A model generated the notes under the pieces. The model was not told the DNA's origin and made no database searches. It worked only from the letters and a program-made list of their open reading frames with translations. DNA of 64,000 nt from Candidatus Spongiisociaceae bacterium (GTDB lineage: Bacteria > Actinomycetota > Acidimicrobiia > Spongiisociales > Spongiisociaceae). The position numbers and the translations under genes were made by a program. Below, piece by piece: positions 52,823-59,799 of the stretch; within the stretch, counting starts at the first letter, position 1; every line of letters starts with the position of its first letter. Location of the stretch: positions 3,584,001 to 3,648,000 of the forward strand of contig OZ253564.1 of the NCBI GenBank assembly GCA_965262915.1, read 5' to 3'.

Positions 52823-54058
52823 TTAGCTCCCTTCATACGTTTGGTTGACGTCGCGATCTGTAGACCGGTCACCGGAAAGTATGTGTGGCGATCCACCTTG
52901 CCACTCAACGATGACCTGATCTCCGGGATGGTATGGATTCATGGCCCTAAGGAAGGCATTCTCTTCTATGGAGAGGGAAAGAGTTGGCTCTGTTTCGGTC
53001 TTGACACTATAGGTAACCCTGGCTCCCTCGTACTTAGCTCCGACCACCGTGGCAGTAAACTGGAATCCAGACCGATTAGGCTCTCGAGTTCTATTCTCGA
53101 GCGATTTTGTATCAACGAGTTTCAGAGTGTCCGGACGGATCACCAATGTAACTTGCTGTCCGATCAGGTTCTCGCTCGGTCCGAGGCACACAAGGGTTCC
53201 GAGAGGTGTTGCGATCTCCATTTCATCCTTCGAGATGCCGGTCACGTAACCATCGATCAGATTGTTGTTGCCAACGAACTTGGCTACGAACCGGGTCGCG
53301 GGTCGGCTGAAGATGTTTTGTGGACTGGCCAACTGTTCGACGCGCCCCGCGTTCAGGACGAGAATCCGGTCCGCCATCGCCAATGCCTCGCTTTGATCGT
53401 GTGTGACGTGGATCACAGCGCATCCCAGGACACGCTGAAGGCGCCGCAGTTCAGCCTGCATTTCGATGCGTAGAGCTGCATCGAGCGACCCCAAAGCCTC
53501 GTCAAGCAAGAGAACACGGGGTCTAGCAACAATTGCTCGAGCCAAAGCAACACGCTGCTGCTGTCCACCACTCAATTGATTCGGTTGCCTGCCACCGAGA
53601 CCGGCGAGACCAACGGTCTCCAGTGCCTTCTCAGCGGCTTGAGAGCGGTCTGACCGCTTTTCTCCTCTCATCCTGAGCGGGAATGCCACATTCTCGATCA
53701 CATTGAGGTGAGGAAAGAGTGCAAAATGTTGAAACACCATTGGGCAATCCCTCCGGTAGGGAGGTATGCCCACCACAGACTCTCCGAAGAAGCTGATCTT
53801 TCCGTCCGACAATGCCTCGAGGCCAGCGATCATTCTGATGGTTGTGGTCTTCCCAGAGCCACTAGGACCGATAATCGAGAAAAACTCGCCTTGCTCCACG
53901 TCGAACGAGATACCGTCAACCGCAACGTATTCGCCGAAGCGCCTTGAGACGTTTTCGAGGCTGACCGCGGGAGAACTCGATGCAATGCTACCGGCGGCAT
54001 CCGGCCTTGCTCTATCGACGGCGTCTCGATCGGTCAACGCCTTTTCCTGCCGTGTCAC
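52823..54058 (-). CDS. PotA-like ABC ATPase
   Basis: GPSGSGKTT, LSGGQQQRVALAR, VTHDQSEAL, TOBE-like tail; start uncertain. Confidence 0.92.
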   Translation of the reverse strand: MTRQEKALTDRDAVDRARPDAAGSIASSSPAVSLENVSRRFGEYVAVDGISFDVEQGEFFSIIGPSGSGKTTTIRMIAGLEALSDGKISFFGESVVGIPPYRRDCPMVFQHFALFPHLNVIENVAFPLRMRGEKRSDRSQAAEKALETVGLAGLGGRQPNQLSGGQQQRVALARAIVARPRVLLLDEALGSLDAALRIEMQAELRRLQRVLGCAVIHVTHDQSEALAMADRILVLNAGRVEQLASPQNIFSRPATRFVAKFVGNNNLIDGYVTGISKDEMEIATPLGTLVCLGPSENLIGQQVTLVIRPDTLKLVDTKSLENRTREPNRSGFQFTATVVGAKYEGARVTYSVKTETEPTLSLSIEENAFLRAMNPYHPGDQVIVEWQGGSPHILSGDRSTDRDVNQTYEGS

Positions 54059-54189
54059 GTTGCGACCATCATGGATATGAGTCGCCAAATGTGCATCTGA
54101 TGCACGGATGGTCAATGCTCCCACATCAAAACGGTACCTAAGTGGGAACAGGGTGTCAACCGATTTTGGACTGGCTCTACGGTACCCGA

Positions 54190-54396
54190 CCCGGGACGGA
54201 GCCGTCGGTCCCGCTCAGTTCCTCCCCGGCTCCTGGGCCAACTCCGGACAGGACGCCAACCACGATGGAACGGACGACCCGCAGAATGTGTTCGACGCCG
54301 CCCTCGCCACCGTCGCCCACCTCTGTCTCCCCAGCCCCGGCGACTACGCCAACTTGGCAGACCTCGCCAGGTCCCTGCGGCGTTACAACAACTCGC
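54190..54396 (+). pseudogene. Lytic transglycosylase (SLT_2-like) fragment
   Basis: AVGPAQFLPGSW...DANHDG..DPQNVFDAALAT...RYNNS; no N-terminus, cut by the IS nest. Confidence 0.7.
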
Positions 54397-54422
54397 CCCT
54401 GCGCGAAAACACTCATACTTAT

Positions 54423-54543
54423 AGGGTTTCCGGTTGGGGCCGGGTCTGACTCACGCGAAAACTGGCCTTTGGTGCCTTTCCCACGATCTGTCGACCTGGC
54501 CCCGGCTAGGAACCCTGAACCGGGGAGCGGGGTGACTTGATAG
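54423..54543 (+). ncRNA. Bridge RNA of outer IS110, 5' part (target-binding loop and start of donor-binding loop)
   Basis: Stem 54423-54446/54493-54516 encloses CGCGAAAAC (= left flank 54402-54410) and CCCACGAT (reverse complement of right junction 57359-57366). Confidence 0.8.
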
Positions 54544-54563
54544 ACACCCCAGGAGCGTAAATG

Positions 54564-55784
54564 TCAAGCTGCGGCTCGGTCGAGCATGGTTCGGTGTGCC
54601 CAGGCGGTGTGTTCGTCGTAGGGGGTTCGGTGTTTGAGGCAGCCGTGGAGGATGCCGACGAGCCGGTTGGCGAGGGCTCGTAGTGCTTGGTGGTGGAGGT
54701 CGCCGGCTGCTTTTCGTTGGTCGTAGAAGGCTCGCGCTCCTGGACTGTTGTTGAGGGAACAGAATGCCCATTGGTCCAAAGCGTTGGGGAGTCGCCGGTT
54801 GCGGACCTGGCGGGCAACGACGGCGTGTTTGCGGCCTGATGCGATGGTGATGGGCGACGTGCCGGCGTAGTTTCTGCGAGACTTGGCGCTGGTGTAGCGG
54901 TCGGGGTCATCCCCGAACTCACCGAGCGCCCGGGCGCCGAGCACGGTACCGAGTCCTGGCTGGGAGTGGTAGATGACGGCGTCCGGGTGTTCTTCAAAAT
55001 GGGCCTCGAGGGTTTCTTCGAGGTCGGCGATCTGGCGGTTGGTTTCCGCGATGATCTTGACCAGCGAAGCAACGATCGTCCCGAAGGCGTCCGCGACCGG
55101 CCCGGGTGCGGTGAGGTGGGCACCTCTGAGGCCTTTCTGTATGCGGCGGGCAACCTTGTCGAGGTTGCGTTTCCGTCCGCCTCTCTGTACCGCTGCTCTG
55201 ATCTGGGGAAGTGTCAGGCGGGCGCCCCGGGTGGGGGTGGGTGCCCGACCGAGTATGGCTAGGGCGTCGCGATGGGCCAGGTCATCGAACGTTTCCAGGG
55301 CTGCAGGGTAGTACTCGCGCAGCGCGTTGCGCATCTGGTTGGTGTGGCGGGTCCGCGCCCAGATCAGGTTCTGATGGGCACGGGCCATGATCTTGATGCC
55401 GTCCGCGTCTGGGCTGTCCCCGGCTACCGGACGGTGGTTGTGACGGTCGGTTCGTACCAGATCGGCTAACACCTTGGCGTCTCCTCGGTCTGATTTGGCT
55501 CCACCCTGGCGGTGACGGTCCCGGTAACGGGAAACTGCCATCGGGTTGATCGCATACACCTGATAACCCGCCCCGACCAGAGCACCGACCCACAGACCAC
55601 GGTCGGTCTCGATCCCTACCACCACCTCGGCCGCATCCGATGCGTGTTTGGCGACCATCTCGTGCAAGCGGGCCACACCCGCCAGGCCCTCCGGTAGACG
55701 GGAGAACCCCAGGCGGGCTCCCTCCTCGTCCAGCAGATACACATCGTGATGTCCCTCAGCCCAGTCGTTACCCACAAAGATCAT
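54564..55784 (-). CDS. IS110 DEDD recombinase/transposase (inner)
   Basis: VGNDWAE (D), GIET (E), KSDRGDA (DD), TSPITIASG catalytic Ser. Confidence 0.95.
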   Translation of the reverse strand: MIFVGNDWAEGHHDVYLLDEEGARLGFSRLPEGLAGVARLHEMVAKHASDAAEVVVGIETDRGLWVGALVGAGYQVYAINPMAVSRYRDRHRQGGAKSDRGDAKVLADLVRTDRHNHRPVAGDSPDADGIKIMARAHQNLIWARTRHTNQMRNALREYYPAALETFDDLAHRDALAILGRAPTPTRGARLTLPQIRAAVQRGGRKRNLDKVARRIQKGLRGAHLTAPGPVADAFGTIVASLVKIIAETNRQIADLEETLEAHFEEHPDAVIYHSQPGLGTVLGARALGEFGDDPDRYTSAKSRRNYAGTSPITIASGRKHAVVARQVRNRRLPNALDQWAFCSLNNSPGARAFYDQRKAAGDLHHQALRALANRLVGILHGCLKHRTPYDEHTAWAHRTMLDRAAA

Positions 55785-55809
55785 CCTTCGCCCCTTCCTT
55801 GCGCGGGTC

Positions 55810-56015
55810 CACTCTCTGCTGAGCTGTGGAGAACGCCTGGCGGCGACCTAATGGATCAGTGCTCTGTGGCACGCCACCCCCTCAGCGCTACAAGCGGCCC
55901 TCACTCACCGGCCGGGGCACGATCTATCAGCAGGAATCAACGTTCCAGGAGCCTGGAGTACTCACCGGCCAGCCAGCTCAACCACCACACCCTCCCAGAA
56001 ACACCGGCAGAAGTG
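55810..56015 (-). ncRNA. Bridge RNA of inner IS110 (boundaries approximate)
   Basis: Minus-strand guides AGGCTCCT (55954-55947), TGATAG (55929-55924), GGGGTGGC (55880-55873), CCATTAG (55854-55848) match the target flanks and element ends; each guide pair is separated by a small hairpin. Confidence 0.82.
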
Positions 56016-56030
56016 GTGGACCCCCATTAG

Positions 56031-56095
56031 GAGCCTTCGACTTTTGCACCGTGAGTGTTCTGTCCGCCGCTCTGCCCGGCTCCGGGGGTTGGATT
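56031..56095 (+). ncRNA. Bridge RNA of outer IS110, 3' part (rest of donor-binding loop)
   Basis: GAGC completes ATAGGAGC (= right end 57351-57358); TGAGTGTT (56052-56059) is the reverse complement of left junction 54408-54415; 56067-56079 pairs with 54520-54530. Confidence 0.78.
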
Positions 56096-56121
56096 CTAGG
56101 CAGCCGACGAAAGGCGAGCAC

Positions 56122-57354
56122 ATGGCGGAGCAAGTTAGGGCCGATGGGGTAGGTGTGGTTGGCGGGGTGGACACACATCGGGATTTCCACGTTGGGGCGG
56201 TGGTGGATGGCGCGGGTCGCCTGTTGGGATCCGCCCAGTTCGGCGCTGATACCTCCGGTTATGCCCAACTGGTCGCCTGGATGGAGTCGTGGGGTCGGAT
56301 CACACGGGTCGGGGTGGAAGGAACGGGCAGCTACGGCGCTGGGCTCACACGTCATCTCACCGAGGCGGGTATCGGTGTGGTGGAGGTGAACCGTCCCAAC
56401 CGCCAGCTTCGCCGGCGGCGGGGCAAGGATGACACCACCGACGCTGAGGCAGCAGCCCGGGCTGCTCTCAACGGTGAAGCGACCGCCCTACCCAAGACGG
56501 GCGACGGACCGGTAGAAGCCACCAGGATGCTGCGGGTAGTTCGCCGCTCCGCGGTCAAAGCCCGCACCCAGGCCGCCAACCAGCTGCACGCTCTGGTAGT
56601 AACCGCTCCTGAGCCGCTCAAACACCAACTCCGGGATCTCCCGACCCGGACACAGGTCAAGGTCTGTGCCCGCTTCCGTCCAGCCACAGCGCAGACCACT
56701 GCGGCATACGCCAAGCGGGCACTGCGGCTTCTAGCCCGCCGATACCAGAATCTAGACACCGAGATCACACAGGTCGACAAACAGATCCGCGGTCTCTGCG
56801 CACGGGCCAACCCTGCGTTGCTGGCCGCCTACGGAGTAGGACCCGACACCGCCGCTGCTCTGCTGGTCGCTGCTGGTGACAACCCACGACGTATGAACTC
56901 AGAAGCAGCCTTCGCGGCCCTCTGCGCCCTCAGCCCCGTAGCCGCATCATCGGGACCGATAGTGCGGCACCGTCTCAACCGAGGCGGCAACCGCCAAGCA
57001 AACAACGCGCTATGGCGGATCGCTACCAACCGAATGCGCACCGACGCTGCCACCAAAGAATATGTCACCAGACGCGAAGCGGAAGGAAAAACCCACACCG
57101 AAATAATCCGCTGCCTGAAACGCCACATCACCCGCGAGATATACCACCTCCTCACCGACCCGCCCCCAACACCCCACGGAACCGACCTACGCCACCGCCG
57201 AACCCAAGCCCGAATCACCCTCACCCGCGCCGCCCACCACCTCGACACACAGCCCACCGTCCTATCACAACTCGAACGAGGCCTCCACCACAACCACCAC
57301 CTCGCTACCCGATACCAACACTGGCTCACCCAACAACCGATTTGCAAAACATAG
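56122..57354 (+). CDS. IS110 DEDD recombinase (outer) with C-terminal XRE-like HTH
   Basis: GGVDTH, GVEGTGSYG, KDDTTDA, PVAASSG, RLNRGGNRQAN; tail LRHRRTQARITLTRAAHHLDTQPTVLSQLERG. Confidence 0.93.
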   Translation: MAEQVRADGVGVVGGVDTHRDFHVGAVVDGAGRLLGSAQFGADTSGYAQLVAWMESWGRITRVGVEGTGSYGAGLTRHLTEAGIGVVEVNRPNRQLRRRRGKDDTTDAEAAARAALNGEATALPKTGDGPVEATRMLRVVRRSAVKARTQAANQLHALVVTAPEPLKHQLRDLPTRTQVKVCARFRPATAQTTAAYAKRALRLLARRYQNLDTEITQVDKQIRGLCARANPALLAAYGVGPDTAAALLVAAGDNPRRMNSEAAFAALCALSPVAASSGPIVRHRLNRGGNRQANNALWRIATNRMRTDAATKEYVTRREAEGKTHTEIIRCLKRHITREIYHLLTDPPPTPHGTDLRHRRTQARITLTRAAHHLDTQPTVLSQLERGLHHNHHLATRYQHWLTQQPICKT

Positions 57355-57450
57355 GAGCATCGTGGGTTGGGTGGGGTGAAATCCTTGGAATGGGGGTGAG
57401 GCCTCGCTGGAATCGGTGAAGTAGCAACTCGCCGATGCCAGGAGGCCTCG

Positions 57451-58649
57451 ATGTCTGATGTTATGTCTGTTCGCCTGCACCTGTCGGGTGTTCGGGTGCT
57501 GGGGGTACTGGTCGAACTCTGTTGACCGCCTCGAGGTCGAAGTTGAATCGACCCGGGGGTGGTCGAGGTGTCCCCATTGCGGGTTTCCGCTGCTATCGGG
57601 GTGTGGGACAGGAGGGCGAAGCGGGTTCGTGACTTGGGCGTGAGCGGCCGTCGCACGACGCTGGTGTGGCGACGCCGCCGGTTCTGCTGTGACAACTGCG
57701 GGGAAGCGGCATCTCGAGGACCACGACCAGTTCAGAGCCGGCCTCATCCGCCGCCTCGCCCATCGCTTAGTCCAAGACGCGAGGGTGATGTCGATTAGGG
57801 CAGCGTCCCGCCATCATGGGGTGGGGTGGCATCGGATCATGGGCCTGGTGAGGGCCGAGTCGGCTCGGGTGGCGGATCGTCGCCGGGCCCGGCTCTGTCG
57901 GGTGCTGTTGGTGGACGAGACATCGATCCGCCATCGGCACCGGTATGTGACCGTGGTTGCCTGGTGGTGATTCCGGCGAGGTGTTGGCGATGATCCCGGG
58001 CCGTACGAAAGCATCCCTCACCAGGTTCTTCAGGGATCAAGGAGCCTGGTGGTGCCGGCAGGTGGAGATAGTCGTCTCCGACGGGTCCCGCTCATATCAG
58101 GCAGCCATCGCGCAGTATCTGCCCGACGCTCTCCACGTGTTGGACCGTTTTCATGTGGCTAGATGGTTCACCGAAGGACTCACCCTCGTGCGGCGAGAGA
58201 TACAACGCCGCCCCCCGGAGCAGCGGCCCCCAACATACGAACCGGACCTGTTCCGAGCCCGCTTCACCCTCCTGCACCTGGCGGATCATCTCAACGACGC
58301 CCACCAGGTGCACCTCGACCGGCTGTTCGACGCTCATCCCCGTCTCCGAACCGCGTGGGACGCGCTCCAAGAGCTCTACCAGCTGTATGAGGCCGACGAC
58401 CGCGACCAGGCCAACGAGGCGCTGGGACGGTTCGCTGACCTCTATGCCACAGGCCAGATCCCCGGATACCTCGACATCGTGGACACCATCATCGCCTGGG
58501 GAGAAGAAATACTGGCCTACCACCCCAGCAGACGGGCATCCAACGGACCCCTCGAAGGGATCAACAACCTCCTCCAGGTCCTACGACGAGTCGCTCACGG
58601 GTTCACTAACTACGACAACTACGCAGCCAGAGGAGTTCTCGTAACATGA
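57451..58649 (+). pseudogene. ISL3 transposase, multiply frameshifted
   Basis: CPHCG and RRRFCCDNCG zinc finger, LVDETS, VVSDG, LDRFHV, SNGPLEGINN..RRVAHGFTN spread over several frames. Confidence 0.85.
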
Positions 58650-58817
58650 CTCCCACACCGACAACAGCGCCCGAAACCCACGAAATCGCGCAGCCTCACC
58701 TACTTACTGACCGGGGGCGCCTTGTGTTGGGTCTCGTCCGATTCGGTGCCGGCTATGGTGGACTATTGTCGGGTTCGGAGGAGCGAGACGGCCGGGTCCG
58801 CCGGCACGACAGACGAG

Positions 58818-59161
58818 CTAGGCTGTGCGTCCTCCCGGCAGGGACAGTTGCTCAACCAAGAGCGGCACATCAACCGTGGCGATATCCTAAAGGCGCTCAT
58901 AATCAATCGCGCCGTACTCGTGGGCTAATACATTCCTTACCCAACAATGTCAGACCACGGTATGTCCGGATAACCACTCCTGACATGCCCACTTAAGTGT
59001 GCGGCTGCTTCTCCGATGTTCTGCAAGCACCGTTCCATAGCCCGTCGCGCTAAGAACGCGTCCCCGAGGTAGACCTCCCGACCCAGCTCCGCGATCTGGC
59101 GAACCTCGTTACCGAATTGAATGATGTCCTCCATGTAACCGTAGTCTCTGCTCGACGTCAT
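58818..59161 (-). pseudogene. HepT-like (DUF86/HEPN) toxin, inactivated
   Basis: AMERCLQNIGEAA..YPDIPW; a frameshift near 58940 puts the RNVLAHEY (Rx4H) motif out of frame, and an in-frame TAG follows at 58887-58889. Confidence 0.8.
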
Positions 59162-59460
59162 AGCGGCACTGCCTCACCGAGGATGTTCTCGCGCCGAGAG
59201 GGGGATCTCCCATCCAATTCTCGGAGCAGCCCGTCCATGCTTATGACATCAACCTCGCGGCCCAGCAGTTCTGCAAGTGCGCGCCGGATACGGATCAGGT
59301 CGAAGAGGCTACCTTCCTTTTCGAGCTTTACCAGAAAGTCGATGTCGCTGTCTGGTCCGTCGTCGCCCCGCACTACGGAGCCGAAGACATGCACTTCCTT
59401 CCCCCGATGTGACCGAACGACCCCTAGTATCTCCTGTCGCCGTTCCTCTAGGAGGCGCAT
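59158..59460 (-). CDS. MntA-like minimal nucleotidyltransferase antitoxin
   Basis: VFGSVVRGDDGPDSDIDFLV, LLGREVDV; ATGA overlap with the HEPN gene. Confidence 0.88.
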   Translation of the reverse strand: MRLLEERRQEILGVVRSHRGKEVHVFGSVVRGDDGPDSDIDFLVKLEKEGSLFDLIRIRRALAELLGREVDVISMDGLLRELDGRSPSRRENILGEAVPL

Positions 59461-59799
59461 CGAAGACCTTCCAGATCCGTCCATCGCTATCAACCCCCAA
59501 ACCTACGCAGCCATCCCATGAGGCCGGTCATCGCCGACCAACCCTGTCATAGAGACCCCACGGGTACCACATGTAAGATTCTACCACCAACGACCCAGGG
59601 CGCCGAGGGAGACTGACTCCTCCTATTTCGGCTAAGAGGGCTAGCGGATAGGTGCTCACGTGGGGAGACACGGGCTGCGACATTTCAAGAACCGCCCGCG
59701 ATGACCTGGGGTTTCCCGACCAGCAGCCGCCTCGGAATGACTACACGGGCACCCAACCCGCGATCCCGACACCGCCCAACACCCGAAGACACCGTAGTG

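Follow-up and report, generated by a model that had tools for sequence, protein, structure and literature searches.

In a 64,000-nucleotide (nt) stretch of the genome of a Candidatus Spongiisociaceae bacterium (contig OZ253564.1, positions 3,584,001 to 3,648,000; hereafter the window), we found an insertion sequence (IS) of the IS110 group lodged in the terminal inverted repeat of an ISL3 element, at a position that is spelled out by two short segments of its own 5′ non-coding end. The anatomy of this element, here called the outer IS110, its site specificity and the covariation of its guide segments with their targets were observed directly. We consider it highly probable, at about 0.88, that a bridge RNA (seekRNA) guides the insertion of the outer IS110 into the ISL3 terminal repeat. 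The genome is available as one contig of 5.06 Mb; coordinates refer to the window unless marked as genome positions or given for the copies of an element elsewhere in the genome.

The locus is a three-level nest, in which an ISL3 element (54395-58697) holds the outer IS110 (54411-57360) and the latter holds an inner IS110 (54544-56030). Without the inner element the outer IS110 measures 1463 bp, and it is inserted 16 nt inside the left terminal repeat of ISL3. The inner element, on the minus strand and of another subfamily, interrupts the 5′ non-coding end of the outer one. An earlier note on this DNA had assigned 54397-57368 to the outer element; an outer IS110 does lie there, but it is not continuous. 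The parts of the nest are as follows.

54395..54410 (+): the outermost 16 nt of ISL3 at its left terminal repeat (GCCC + CTGCGCGAAAAC), severed from the remainder of ISL3 by the insertion
54411..54543 (+): left end of the outer IS110, part 1, which begins ACTCAT... and holds both the stem and the target loop of the predicted bridge RNA; it equals positions 1-133 of the uninterrupted copies at 100% identity
54454..54462 (+): left target guide CGCGAAAAC, in the same sense as the left flank 54402-54410; it matches at 9/9 positions in three copies, the fourth having 8/9
54480..54486 (+): right target guide CCCACG(A), whose first six letters are the right flank CGTGGG (57361-57366) in reverse complement; its additional A pairs with a T that belongs to the end of the element
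54544..56030 (-): inner IS110, 1487 bp, CT core, with a transposase gene at 54567-55784 (-) and its own predicted bridge RNA in 55785-56030
56031..56121 (+): left end of the outer IS110, part 2, the rest of the putative donor-binding loop; here GAGC (56031-56034) supplies the remainder of ATAGGAGC, a copy of the right end, and GTGAGTG (56051-56057) complements C+ACTCAT of the left end
56122..57354 (+): transposase gene of the outer IS110, open, 410 amino acids (aa) plus stop; PF01548, PF02371, NF033542
57355..57361 (+): right end of the outer IS110, ...GAGCAT, plus the single C common to the target (crossover base)
57362..58697 (+): remainder of ISL3, with the inner part of the left repeat, a broken transposase gene (57451-58649) and the right repeat (58675-58697)

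Guide segments and their site in the ISL3 repeat

Direct reading of the letters bears out the earlier claim that the guides match the flanks. The left guide CGCGAAAAC equals the left flank of the element at 9/9 positions, and CCCACG (54480-54485) equals the reverse complement of the right flank CGTGGG at 6/6. The combined pattern, CGCGAAAAC-N(10-25)-CCCACG, has a single occurrence in the window and none in 100 dinucleotide-preserving shuffles. When the flanks are rejoined, the resulting site (CTGCGCGAAAAC+GTGGGTT) agrees with the reverse complement of the ISL3 right end (58675-58693; genome 3642675-3642693) at 16/19 positions, with three substitutions, the same count as had been reported. Uninterrupted ISL3 ends that read exactly CTGCGCGAAAACGTGGGTT (19/19) were found at genome positions 67879 and 689267. 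Since these ends equal the rejoined sequence, one C is common to both junctions, and the insertion adds the element and one C.

The string that the earlier note had taken for an ISL3 end does belong to a true terminal repeat, but its tip lies 4 nt further out. The true tips stand 4 nt outside CTGCGCG (GGCC/GCCC...CTGCGCG), as defined by the 8-bp target duplications AGAAGGTT and GGCAACCA around two other ISL3 copies, and the insertion point is 16 nt from the tip. Jointly, the two guides specify a 14-nt site, CGCGAAA-AC-GTGGG, which corresponds to nt 8-21 of the ISL3 terminal inverted repeat of about 23 bp.

Is this position shared by other copies? The genome contains four copies of the outer IS110: the window copy, a second one that also carries the inner element (4422068..4419118), and two uninterrupted copies of 1463 bp each (541943-543405 and 546193..544731). 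The flanks, whose tabulation had been suggested with the original observation, are ISL3 repeat halves in 4/4 copies, with CTGCGCG(A/G)AAAC on the left, CGTGGGTT on the right and unrelated DNA beyond. All four copies are found at the same ISL3 repeat position, and both left and right ISL3 ends are used, in support of the earlier proposal that the element is guided to ISL3 ends as a multicopy safe harbour. The two uninterrupted copies lie inverted, one in each terminal repeat of a single ISL3, and the 8-bp target duplication of this doubly capped ISL3, AGAAGGTT, is found outside the whole composite.

Occupancy of the site follows the match to the guide. In a count over the genome, three ISL3 sites without guide mismatches were occupied and three were free; at one mismatch, one site was occupied and four were free. 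With two or more mismatches none of the 17 listed sites was occupied, some of these having passed the context filter without being true ISL3 ends. The window's own right repeat, which has three mismatches to the guide in its left half-site, is among the unoccupied ends.

The outer element, its predicted RNA and natural guide swaps

By its domains and ends, the outer element is an IS110-group insertion sequence with a DEDD/serine transposase and a long 5′ non-coding end. The transposase matches PF01548, the N-terminal DEDD, RuvC-like domain (E 1.5e-23, residues 41-185 of the long open reading frame), PF02371, the C-terminal Tnp domain with the catalytic serine (E 3.8e-17), and the NCBIfam model NF033542 'IS110 family RNA-guided transposase' with 191.8 bits (cut-off 140). 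It shares 23% identity with the inner transposase, to which its D, E and D..D positions align, and which in turn aligns to ISCro4 and IS621; likewise, its AASSG motif aligns with ASG of the inner transposase and the latter with ESG of ISCro4. In the uninterrupted copy, 223 non-coding nt precede the ATG and 6 nt follow the stop codon, which lies inside ...CATAGGAGCAT. The ends, ACTCAT... and ...GGAGCAT, are not inverted repeats, and comparison with the empty sites gives one shared C and no multi-base target duplication. With the non-coding region upstream, a downstream end of 6 nt and no subterminal inverted repeats, the element does not fall into the IS1111 group.

The 5′ end most likely encodes a bridge RNA. 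A minimum-free-energy fold of the uninterrupted copy and a consensus fold of 14 relatives agree on a long stem that encloses an internal loop, with the left guide on its 5′ side, a small hairpin TGGC...GCC on top and the right guide on its 3′ side. Among the 14 relatives, 9/23 predicted pairs of the stem around the guides have compensatory changes, and in the alignments of relatives hypervariability is confined to the two guide segments, the scaffold being otherwise conserved. Further downstream in the 5′ end, ATAGGAGC equals the element's right end, while GTGAGTG can pair with C+ACTCAT at the left end, one of the pairs being G-T. In 4/5 types the base adjoining GTGAGTG varies in step with the final base of the left flank, which is the last target base; it resembles the handshake guides reported for IS621 in the available text of PMC11208158. 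A near-consensus promoter sequence, TTGACA-17-CATAAT (11/12), would form only across joined ends, and this in relatives; a search of the integrated outer copy for a promoter-like site found none. An Rfam search of 53500-59500 gave no match to a bridge-RNA family. The sole Rfam match in this interval was RF02464 (Ms_AS-4, an actinobacterial small RNA family) at 54882-54963 (+), with 86.9 bits and E 4e-13, antisense within the inner transposase gene.

On this basis we propose the following sequence of events. The outer element would excise as a circle, and the donor loop of its RNA (ATAGGAGC, GTGAGTG) would pair with the joined element ends, while CGCGAAAAC would pair with the bottom strand of the left half-site and CCCACG(A) with the top strand of the right half-site. 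Recombination with the repeat would take place at one C and give the junctions ...GAAAAC joined to ACTCAT... and ...GGAGCAT joined to CGTGGG...; indeed, a top-strand exchange of the IS621 type after a 2-nt core (target AC, donor TC) would predict exactly the junctions observed. Every ISL3 end that keeps the site would be a possible landing pad, and the element could therefore multiply without hitting host genes.

Do guide and site change together in nature? The genome contains 39 right ends of the outer clade, plus many left ends, and several element types carry guides of their own; ISL3-A here denotes the ISL3 family that hosts the outer IS110.

r5: guides CCTCGTAAC / GTCATG; stop-codon region of ISL3-A, about 47 bp from the right tip; genome 4996112-4997572
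T3: guides GGTGAAATC / CCAAGG; about 30 bp inside the left end of ISL3-A; genome 2007816-2009343
IS110-B: guides ACTGAAATC / TCATCG; 8 nt from the tip, in the right repeat of a second ISL3 family (ISL3-B); about 17 of about 37 copies occupied
S: guides CCGGGAAAC / CCCCGG; end of an IS3-like element; genome 962696-964180

Comparing the guides with their own flanks in eight element types, including relatives from other genomes, we found that 115/120 positions match; none of 14,833 mispairings of guides and flanks reaches this value (mean 63.7, maximum 90). The target of element S, CCGGGAAACCCGGGGCGGTTCA, is the end of a multicopy IS3-like element with at least 20 sites, e.g. at genome position 617926. 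The r5 type recurs beside an intact ISL3 gene in another genome (G007, locus L004). In another species, represented by a Candidatus Spongiisociaceae metagenome-assembled genome (MAG), a relative with 75% aa identity has the same guide and adjoins the C-terminus of an ISL3 transposase, and a second same-guide copy in that MAG is located at an ISL3-type end. The search for the site that the earlier note had proposed thus returned both exact uninterrupted ISL3 ends in the genome and the same guide and ISL3 repeat in another species. More widely, the site motif is present in 10/24 other genomes of the same family and in 0/16 genomes of the order's other families, with 0-1 hits for the reversed-motif control; an ISL3 transposase gene stands beside the motif in 4/10 loci fetched. 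None of our conclusions depends on genome G028, which is unpublished.

Only the right repeat of ISL3-B is occupied (an example copy is 4455389-4456812), the left one lacking the IS110-B site. For IS110-B and S the guide halves abut on the target and give a 15-nt site; for outer, r5 and T3 they overlap by the crossover C and give a 14-nt site. The scaffold has the same length in the abutting and the overlapping types. We also considered a single-C ISL3-B end (genome 306090) as the true IS110-B target, with the CC form as an escape variant. This reading was rejected because occupied ISL3-B copies are mixed with free ones on the tree and because the site of S exists in the genome only in the longer form.

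Some relatives show further arrangements. At L003 (genome G021) and L049 (an Acidimicrobiia MAG) the first 50 nt or so of a full element occur a second time in front of it and end at the left guide, as if the element had inserted into this guide sequence in a copy already present. L018, from a Candidatus Spongiisociaceae MAG, is a clade member whose guides (TTGACAAAC / TCTATG) spell the right end of its own clade (...TTGACAAACATAGGAGCAT); its left flank matches the guide at 8/9 positions, and no right end was found in the locus.

Weighing of alternatives and consequences for the host elements

Several observations weigh against RNA-guided insertion as set out above. One outer copy occupies a site with a guide mismatch, and three perfectly matching sites are unoccupied. 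The right guide mismatches the first core base of the target (T expected, A present), and IS110-B and S differ by 1 nt in register from the other types. In the MAG with the 75% relative, a third same-guide copy (L019) is located at a near-matching site with no ISL3 gene nearby. RNAalifold did not recover a closing stem for the putative donor loop across the 14 relatives; the loop is assigned from sequence matches. The junction hexamers of the outer element itself are weak (TTGCAA-17-CATACT, 8/12), and a search of the PDB with its transposase at E 0.001 found nothing, only the inner transposase reaching IS621 and ISCro4. The single RNA run covers the inner transposase gene with a few short contigs and leaves the outer element uncovered, from which nothing follows. 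We infer the RNA, circle and chemistry of the outer element by homology.

What does the insertion mean for ISL3? The window copy belongs to this family by PF01610 (E 1.3e-50) and by the ISL3 zinc-ribbon and helix-turn-helix domains in its pieces, and intact relatives of 398 aa score 277 and 284 bits against NF033550 (cut-off 180). Members of the ISL3 family duplicate 8 bp of their target. The ends share about 20/23 nt, and the duplications named above flank two copies, whereas the window copy has none: the 8 nt outside its tips, AACAACTC and ACCTACTT (the right one at 58698-58705), differ, so that this copy probably underwent a rearrangement. An open reading frame that reads into its left tip (54108-54449) has a partial SLT_2 transglycosylase match (E 7e-6). 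As the earlier note had stated, the window transposase gene is heavily frameshifted: comparison with an intact 398-aa relative places its pieces in frames 2, 3, 2, 3 and 1, with stops, all within the first 170 residues or so. The IS110 insertion does not explain these frameshifts. The ISL3 with IS110 in both repeats keeps an intact 398-aa transposase gene, and breakage is also seen in an ISL3 copy (3670462-3671776) whose two ends are free.

Immobilisation of ISL3 is a reasonable inference from the splitting of its repeat. Beyond this, the insertion could be mainly a brake on ISL3, arising from inter-element competition or host benefit, instead of a neutral safe harbour; we regard this as possible, if on balance doubtful. 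A repeat split 16 nt from its tip would stop the ISL3 transposase from using that end, and the split is physical; both repeats are split in an ISL3 whose transposase gene is intact, and no general co-mobilisation of composites was seen. In addition, the only clade of identical, recently copied ISL3-B consists of eight free copies and one occupied copy, and most occupied copies sit on longer branches. However, older copies have had more time to be hit, which would account for these branch lengths equally well, and broken ISL3 copies with free ends exist. A brake would concern the consequence of the insertion and not its mechanism, and is compatible with guided insertion.

A quite different account is that IS110-carrying ISL3 elements were duplicated or moved as composites, the shared position thus being due to descent. 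Two pairs of copies speak for it. The window copy and 4422068..4419118, which are about 99% alike, carry the same inner element at an identical position, so that outer and inner element, at least, may have been copied as one piece; in the ISL3-B system, one occupied sister pair is similar in both parts, with the ISL3 3.0% and the IS110 1.4% apart. Against it, identity among the outer IS110 copies is 98.6-100%, compared with 83-87% among the ISL3 copies that host them. Because of this difference we read the outer insertions as separate events into old, diverged ISL3 copies and not as copies of one composite. Moreover, insertions are found at left as well as right ISL3 ends, in one ISL3 at both, and have the orientation that the symmetry of the site predicts. 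In the same way, IS110-B copies only 0-0.7% apart lie in ISL3-B copies 6-12% apart (Mantel r 0.19, 286/5000 permutations as high), and the occupied copies are scattered over the ISL3-B tree, one of them within the clade of eight identical free copies. The divergence pattern fits independent hits with no general composite movement, and is no proof of silencing; ISL3 and IS110 moving as one unit is not supported in general, and we judge passive spread to be very improbable.

Hardly any weight falls on direct reading of the ISL3 repeat by the transposase protein, with the 5′-end matches as by-products such as captured target sequence: many site-specific recombinases do read DNA by protein contacts, and the RNA here is a prediction, but the matching segments are opposite in polarity and on two sides of an internal loop with a conserved hairpin between them, they alone are hypervariable in the scaffold, they change together with the insertion site in eight element types, and the same architecture has been shown experimentally for IS621 and ISEc11-type elements, according to the available text of PMC11208160 and PMC11187229.

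Guided insertion may also apply to the inner IS110. Its transposase gene (54567-55784, minus strand) is open and encodes 406 aa with PF01548 and PF02371; the protein scores 184.9 bits against NF033542 (cut-off 140) and matches ISCro4 (E 3e-8) and IS621 (E 1e-7) in the PDB. Residues 213-314 also show a weak match to NF052498 (TIGR-Tas RNA-guided endonuclease; 24.6 bits, cut-off 100). In the predicted two-loop RNA, AGGCTCCT equals the left flank plus core, TGATAGA complements the core plus right flank, and CCATTAG and GGGGTG match the element's own ends. The target, TGATAGGAGCCT, corresponds to the outer element's donor-loop gene, and 3/3 near-identical inner copies are found in donor-loop genes of the outer clade (window, genome 4420449-4421935 and 287302-288788). 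Judging from these matches, the inner IS110 is a guide-RNA element aimed at the guide-RNA gene of another element. Its insertion separates the two loops of the predicted outer RNA gene, and the window's outer copy probably depends on intact copies for its RNA. Inner relatives at 84-87% identity carry other guides; some, at 85-87%, lie inside tandem CACCTG(G/A) heptamer repeats that match their own guides (737779-739262, 371392-372875, 1359845-1361327 and others), and one is found at the right end of an outer-clade element.

We compared four sequencing runs with the window, in which only contigs, breaking at repeats, are available. Contigs over the left junction extend into the element by no more than 16-17 nt, short of the 31-nt threshold. 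In three runs a joint leads from 54540 to 56028 and skips 1487 nt; it represents the uninterrupted form, and we rejected it as a polymorphism since the genome itself holds this form elsewhere. Metagenome contigs gave no match to the window's unique left junction (31 nt) or to the outer target loop (40 nt with 7 N).

We speculate, as a quite tentative picture, that these elements form a layered network, in which the IS110 clade was re-programmed at least five times against the ends of other IS elements and a second IS110 family targets that clade, so that guide switching would be part of a transposon arms race. The targets would comprise three sites in ISL3-A, the right repeat of ISL3-B and the IS3-like repeat, with the second family hitting the donor-loop gene or the right end of the clade. 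If a hit in the repeat stops ISL3 and a hit in the donor loop disables the bridge RNA, this would be a natural RNA-guided silencing of one element by another.

Relation to known systems

IS621 and other IS110-group elements use a bridge RNA with a target loop and a donor loop, as described in the available parts of Durrant et al. 2024 (PMC11208160) and Hiraizumi et al. 2024 (PMC11208158). The outer IS110 resembles IS621, as far as it is described there, in its DEDD plus serine transposase, its long 5′ non-coding and short 3′ ends, a predicted target loop with the left guide in target sense and the right guide as its complement, a putative donor loop whose sequence corresponds to both ends of the element and includes handshake-like positions, a proposed crossover at a short core and, in relatives, a predicted joined-end promoter. 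It differs in its core, (A/T)C instead of the CT of IS621, with different cores at the left and right junctions (AC, TC), and in its natural target, which is the terminal repeat of another element, while that of IS621 is a sequence of the repetitive extragenic palindromic (REP) type. Its transposase is also too distant from IS621 for a direct PDB match. The IS110-family element ISPpu9, in the available text of PMC12288879, is found in REP sequences; the outer IS110 likewise uses a multicopy genomic repeat as its landing site, but this repeat belongs to a mobile element and not to the host.

The choice of another element as the target has precedents, which we compare by title. A paper by Muller, Lauf and Herrmann of 2001 is said to deal with Pseudomonas putida H, in which IS1383 reportedly integrates into the inverted repeats of another element, IS1384. 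A table in the available part of PMC5141477 lists IS1383 in the IS110 family and IS1384 in the IS5 family, and we rejected the assignment of IS1384 to the ISL3 family on this ground. By its title, this case shares with ours an IS110-family element that targets the inverted repeat of another IS; it differs in the host element, IS5 instead of ISL3, and the bacteria are unrelated. IS4321 and IS5075 reportedly target the terminal repeats of the Tn21 family (Partridge and Hall, 2003, by title). The outer IS110 resembles them in its orientation-specific insertion at one position in the terminal inverted repeat of another mobile element. Members of the IS1111 group, to which these two belong, have subterminal inverted repeats and a guide RNA downstream of the transposase gene, as stated in the available text of PMC11187229, unlike the outer element with its upstream non-coding region and no such repeats.

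RNA-guided site choice and natural re-programming have already been published, the available text of PMC11187229 covering both. Our literature search returned no paper linking IS110 to ISL3 repeats, although Supplementary Table 1 of PMC11208160 may list such a case; 'ISL3' is nowhere in the text of PMC11187229. Thus, the mechanism (bridge RNA or seekRNA, known since 2024) and the strategy of landing in the repeat of another element are known, and the ISL3 host is new. To the known systems the locus adds a natural guide-swap panel, in which one RNA scaffold carries different 9+6-nt guides, each at the site that it spells out, with empty sites for comparison. The natural evidence for guided landing is unusually clear here, and the completeness of this panel is the main value of the locus. 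It can define the guide length, the tolerance of the core (AC vs TC) and the handshake positions for a distant branch of the family, and it supplies test pairs for a heterologous assay. With the nested second IS110 and the doubly capped ISL3, the silencing of host elements by insertion becomes directly testable.

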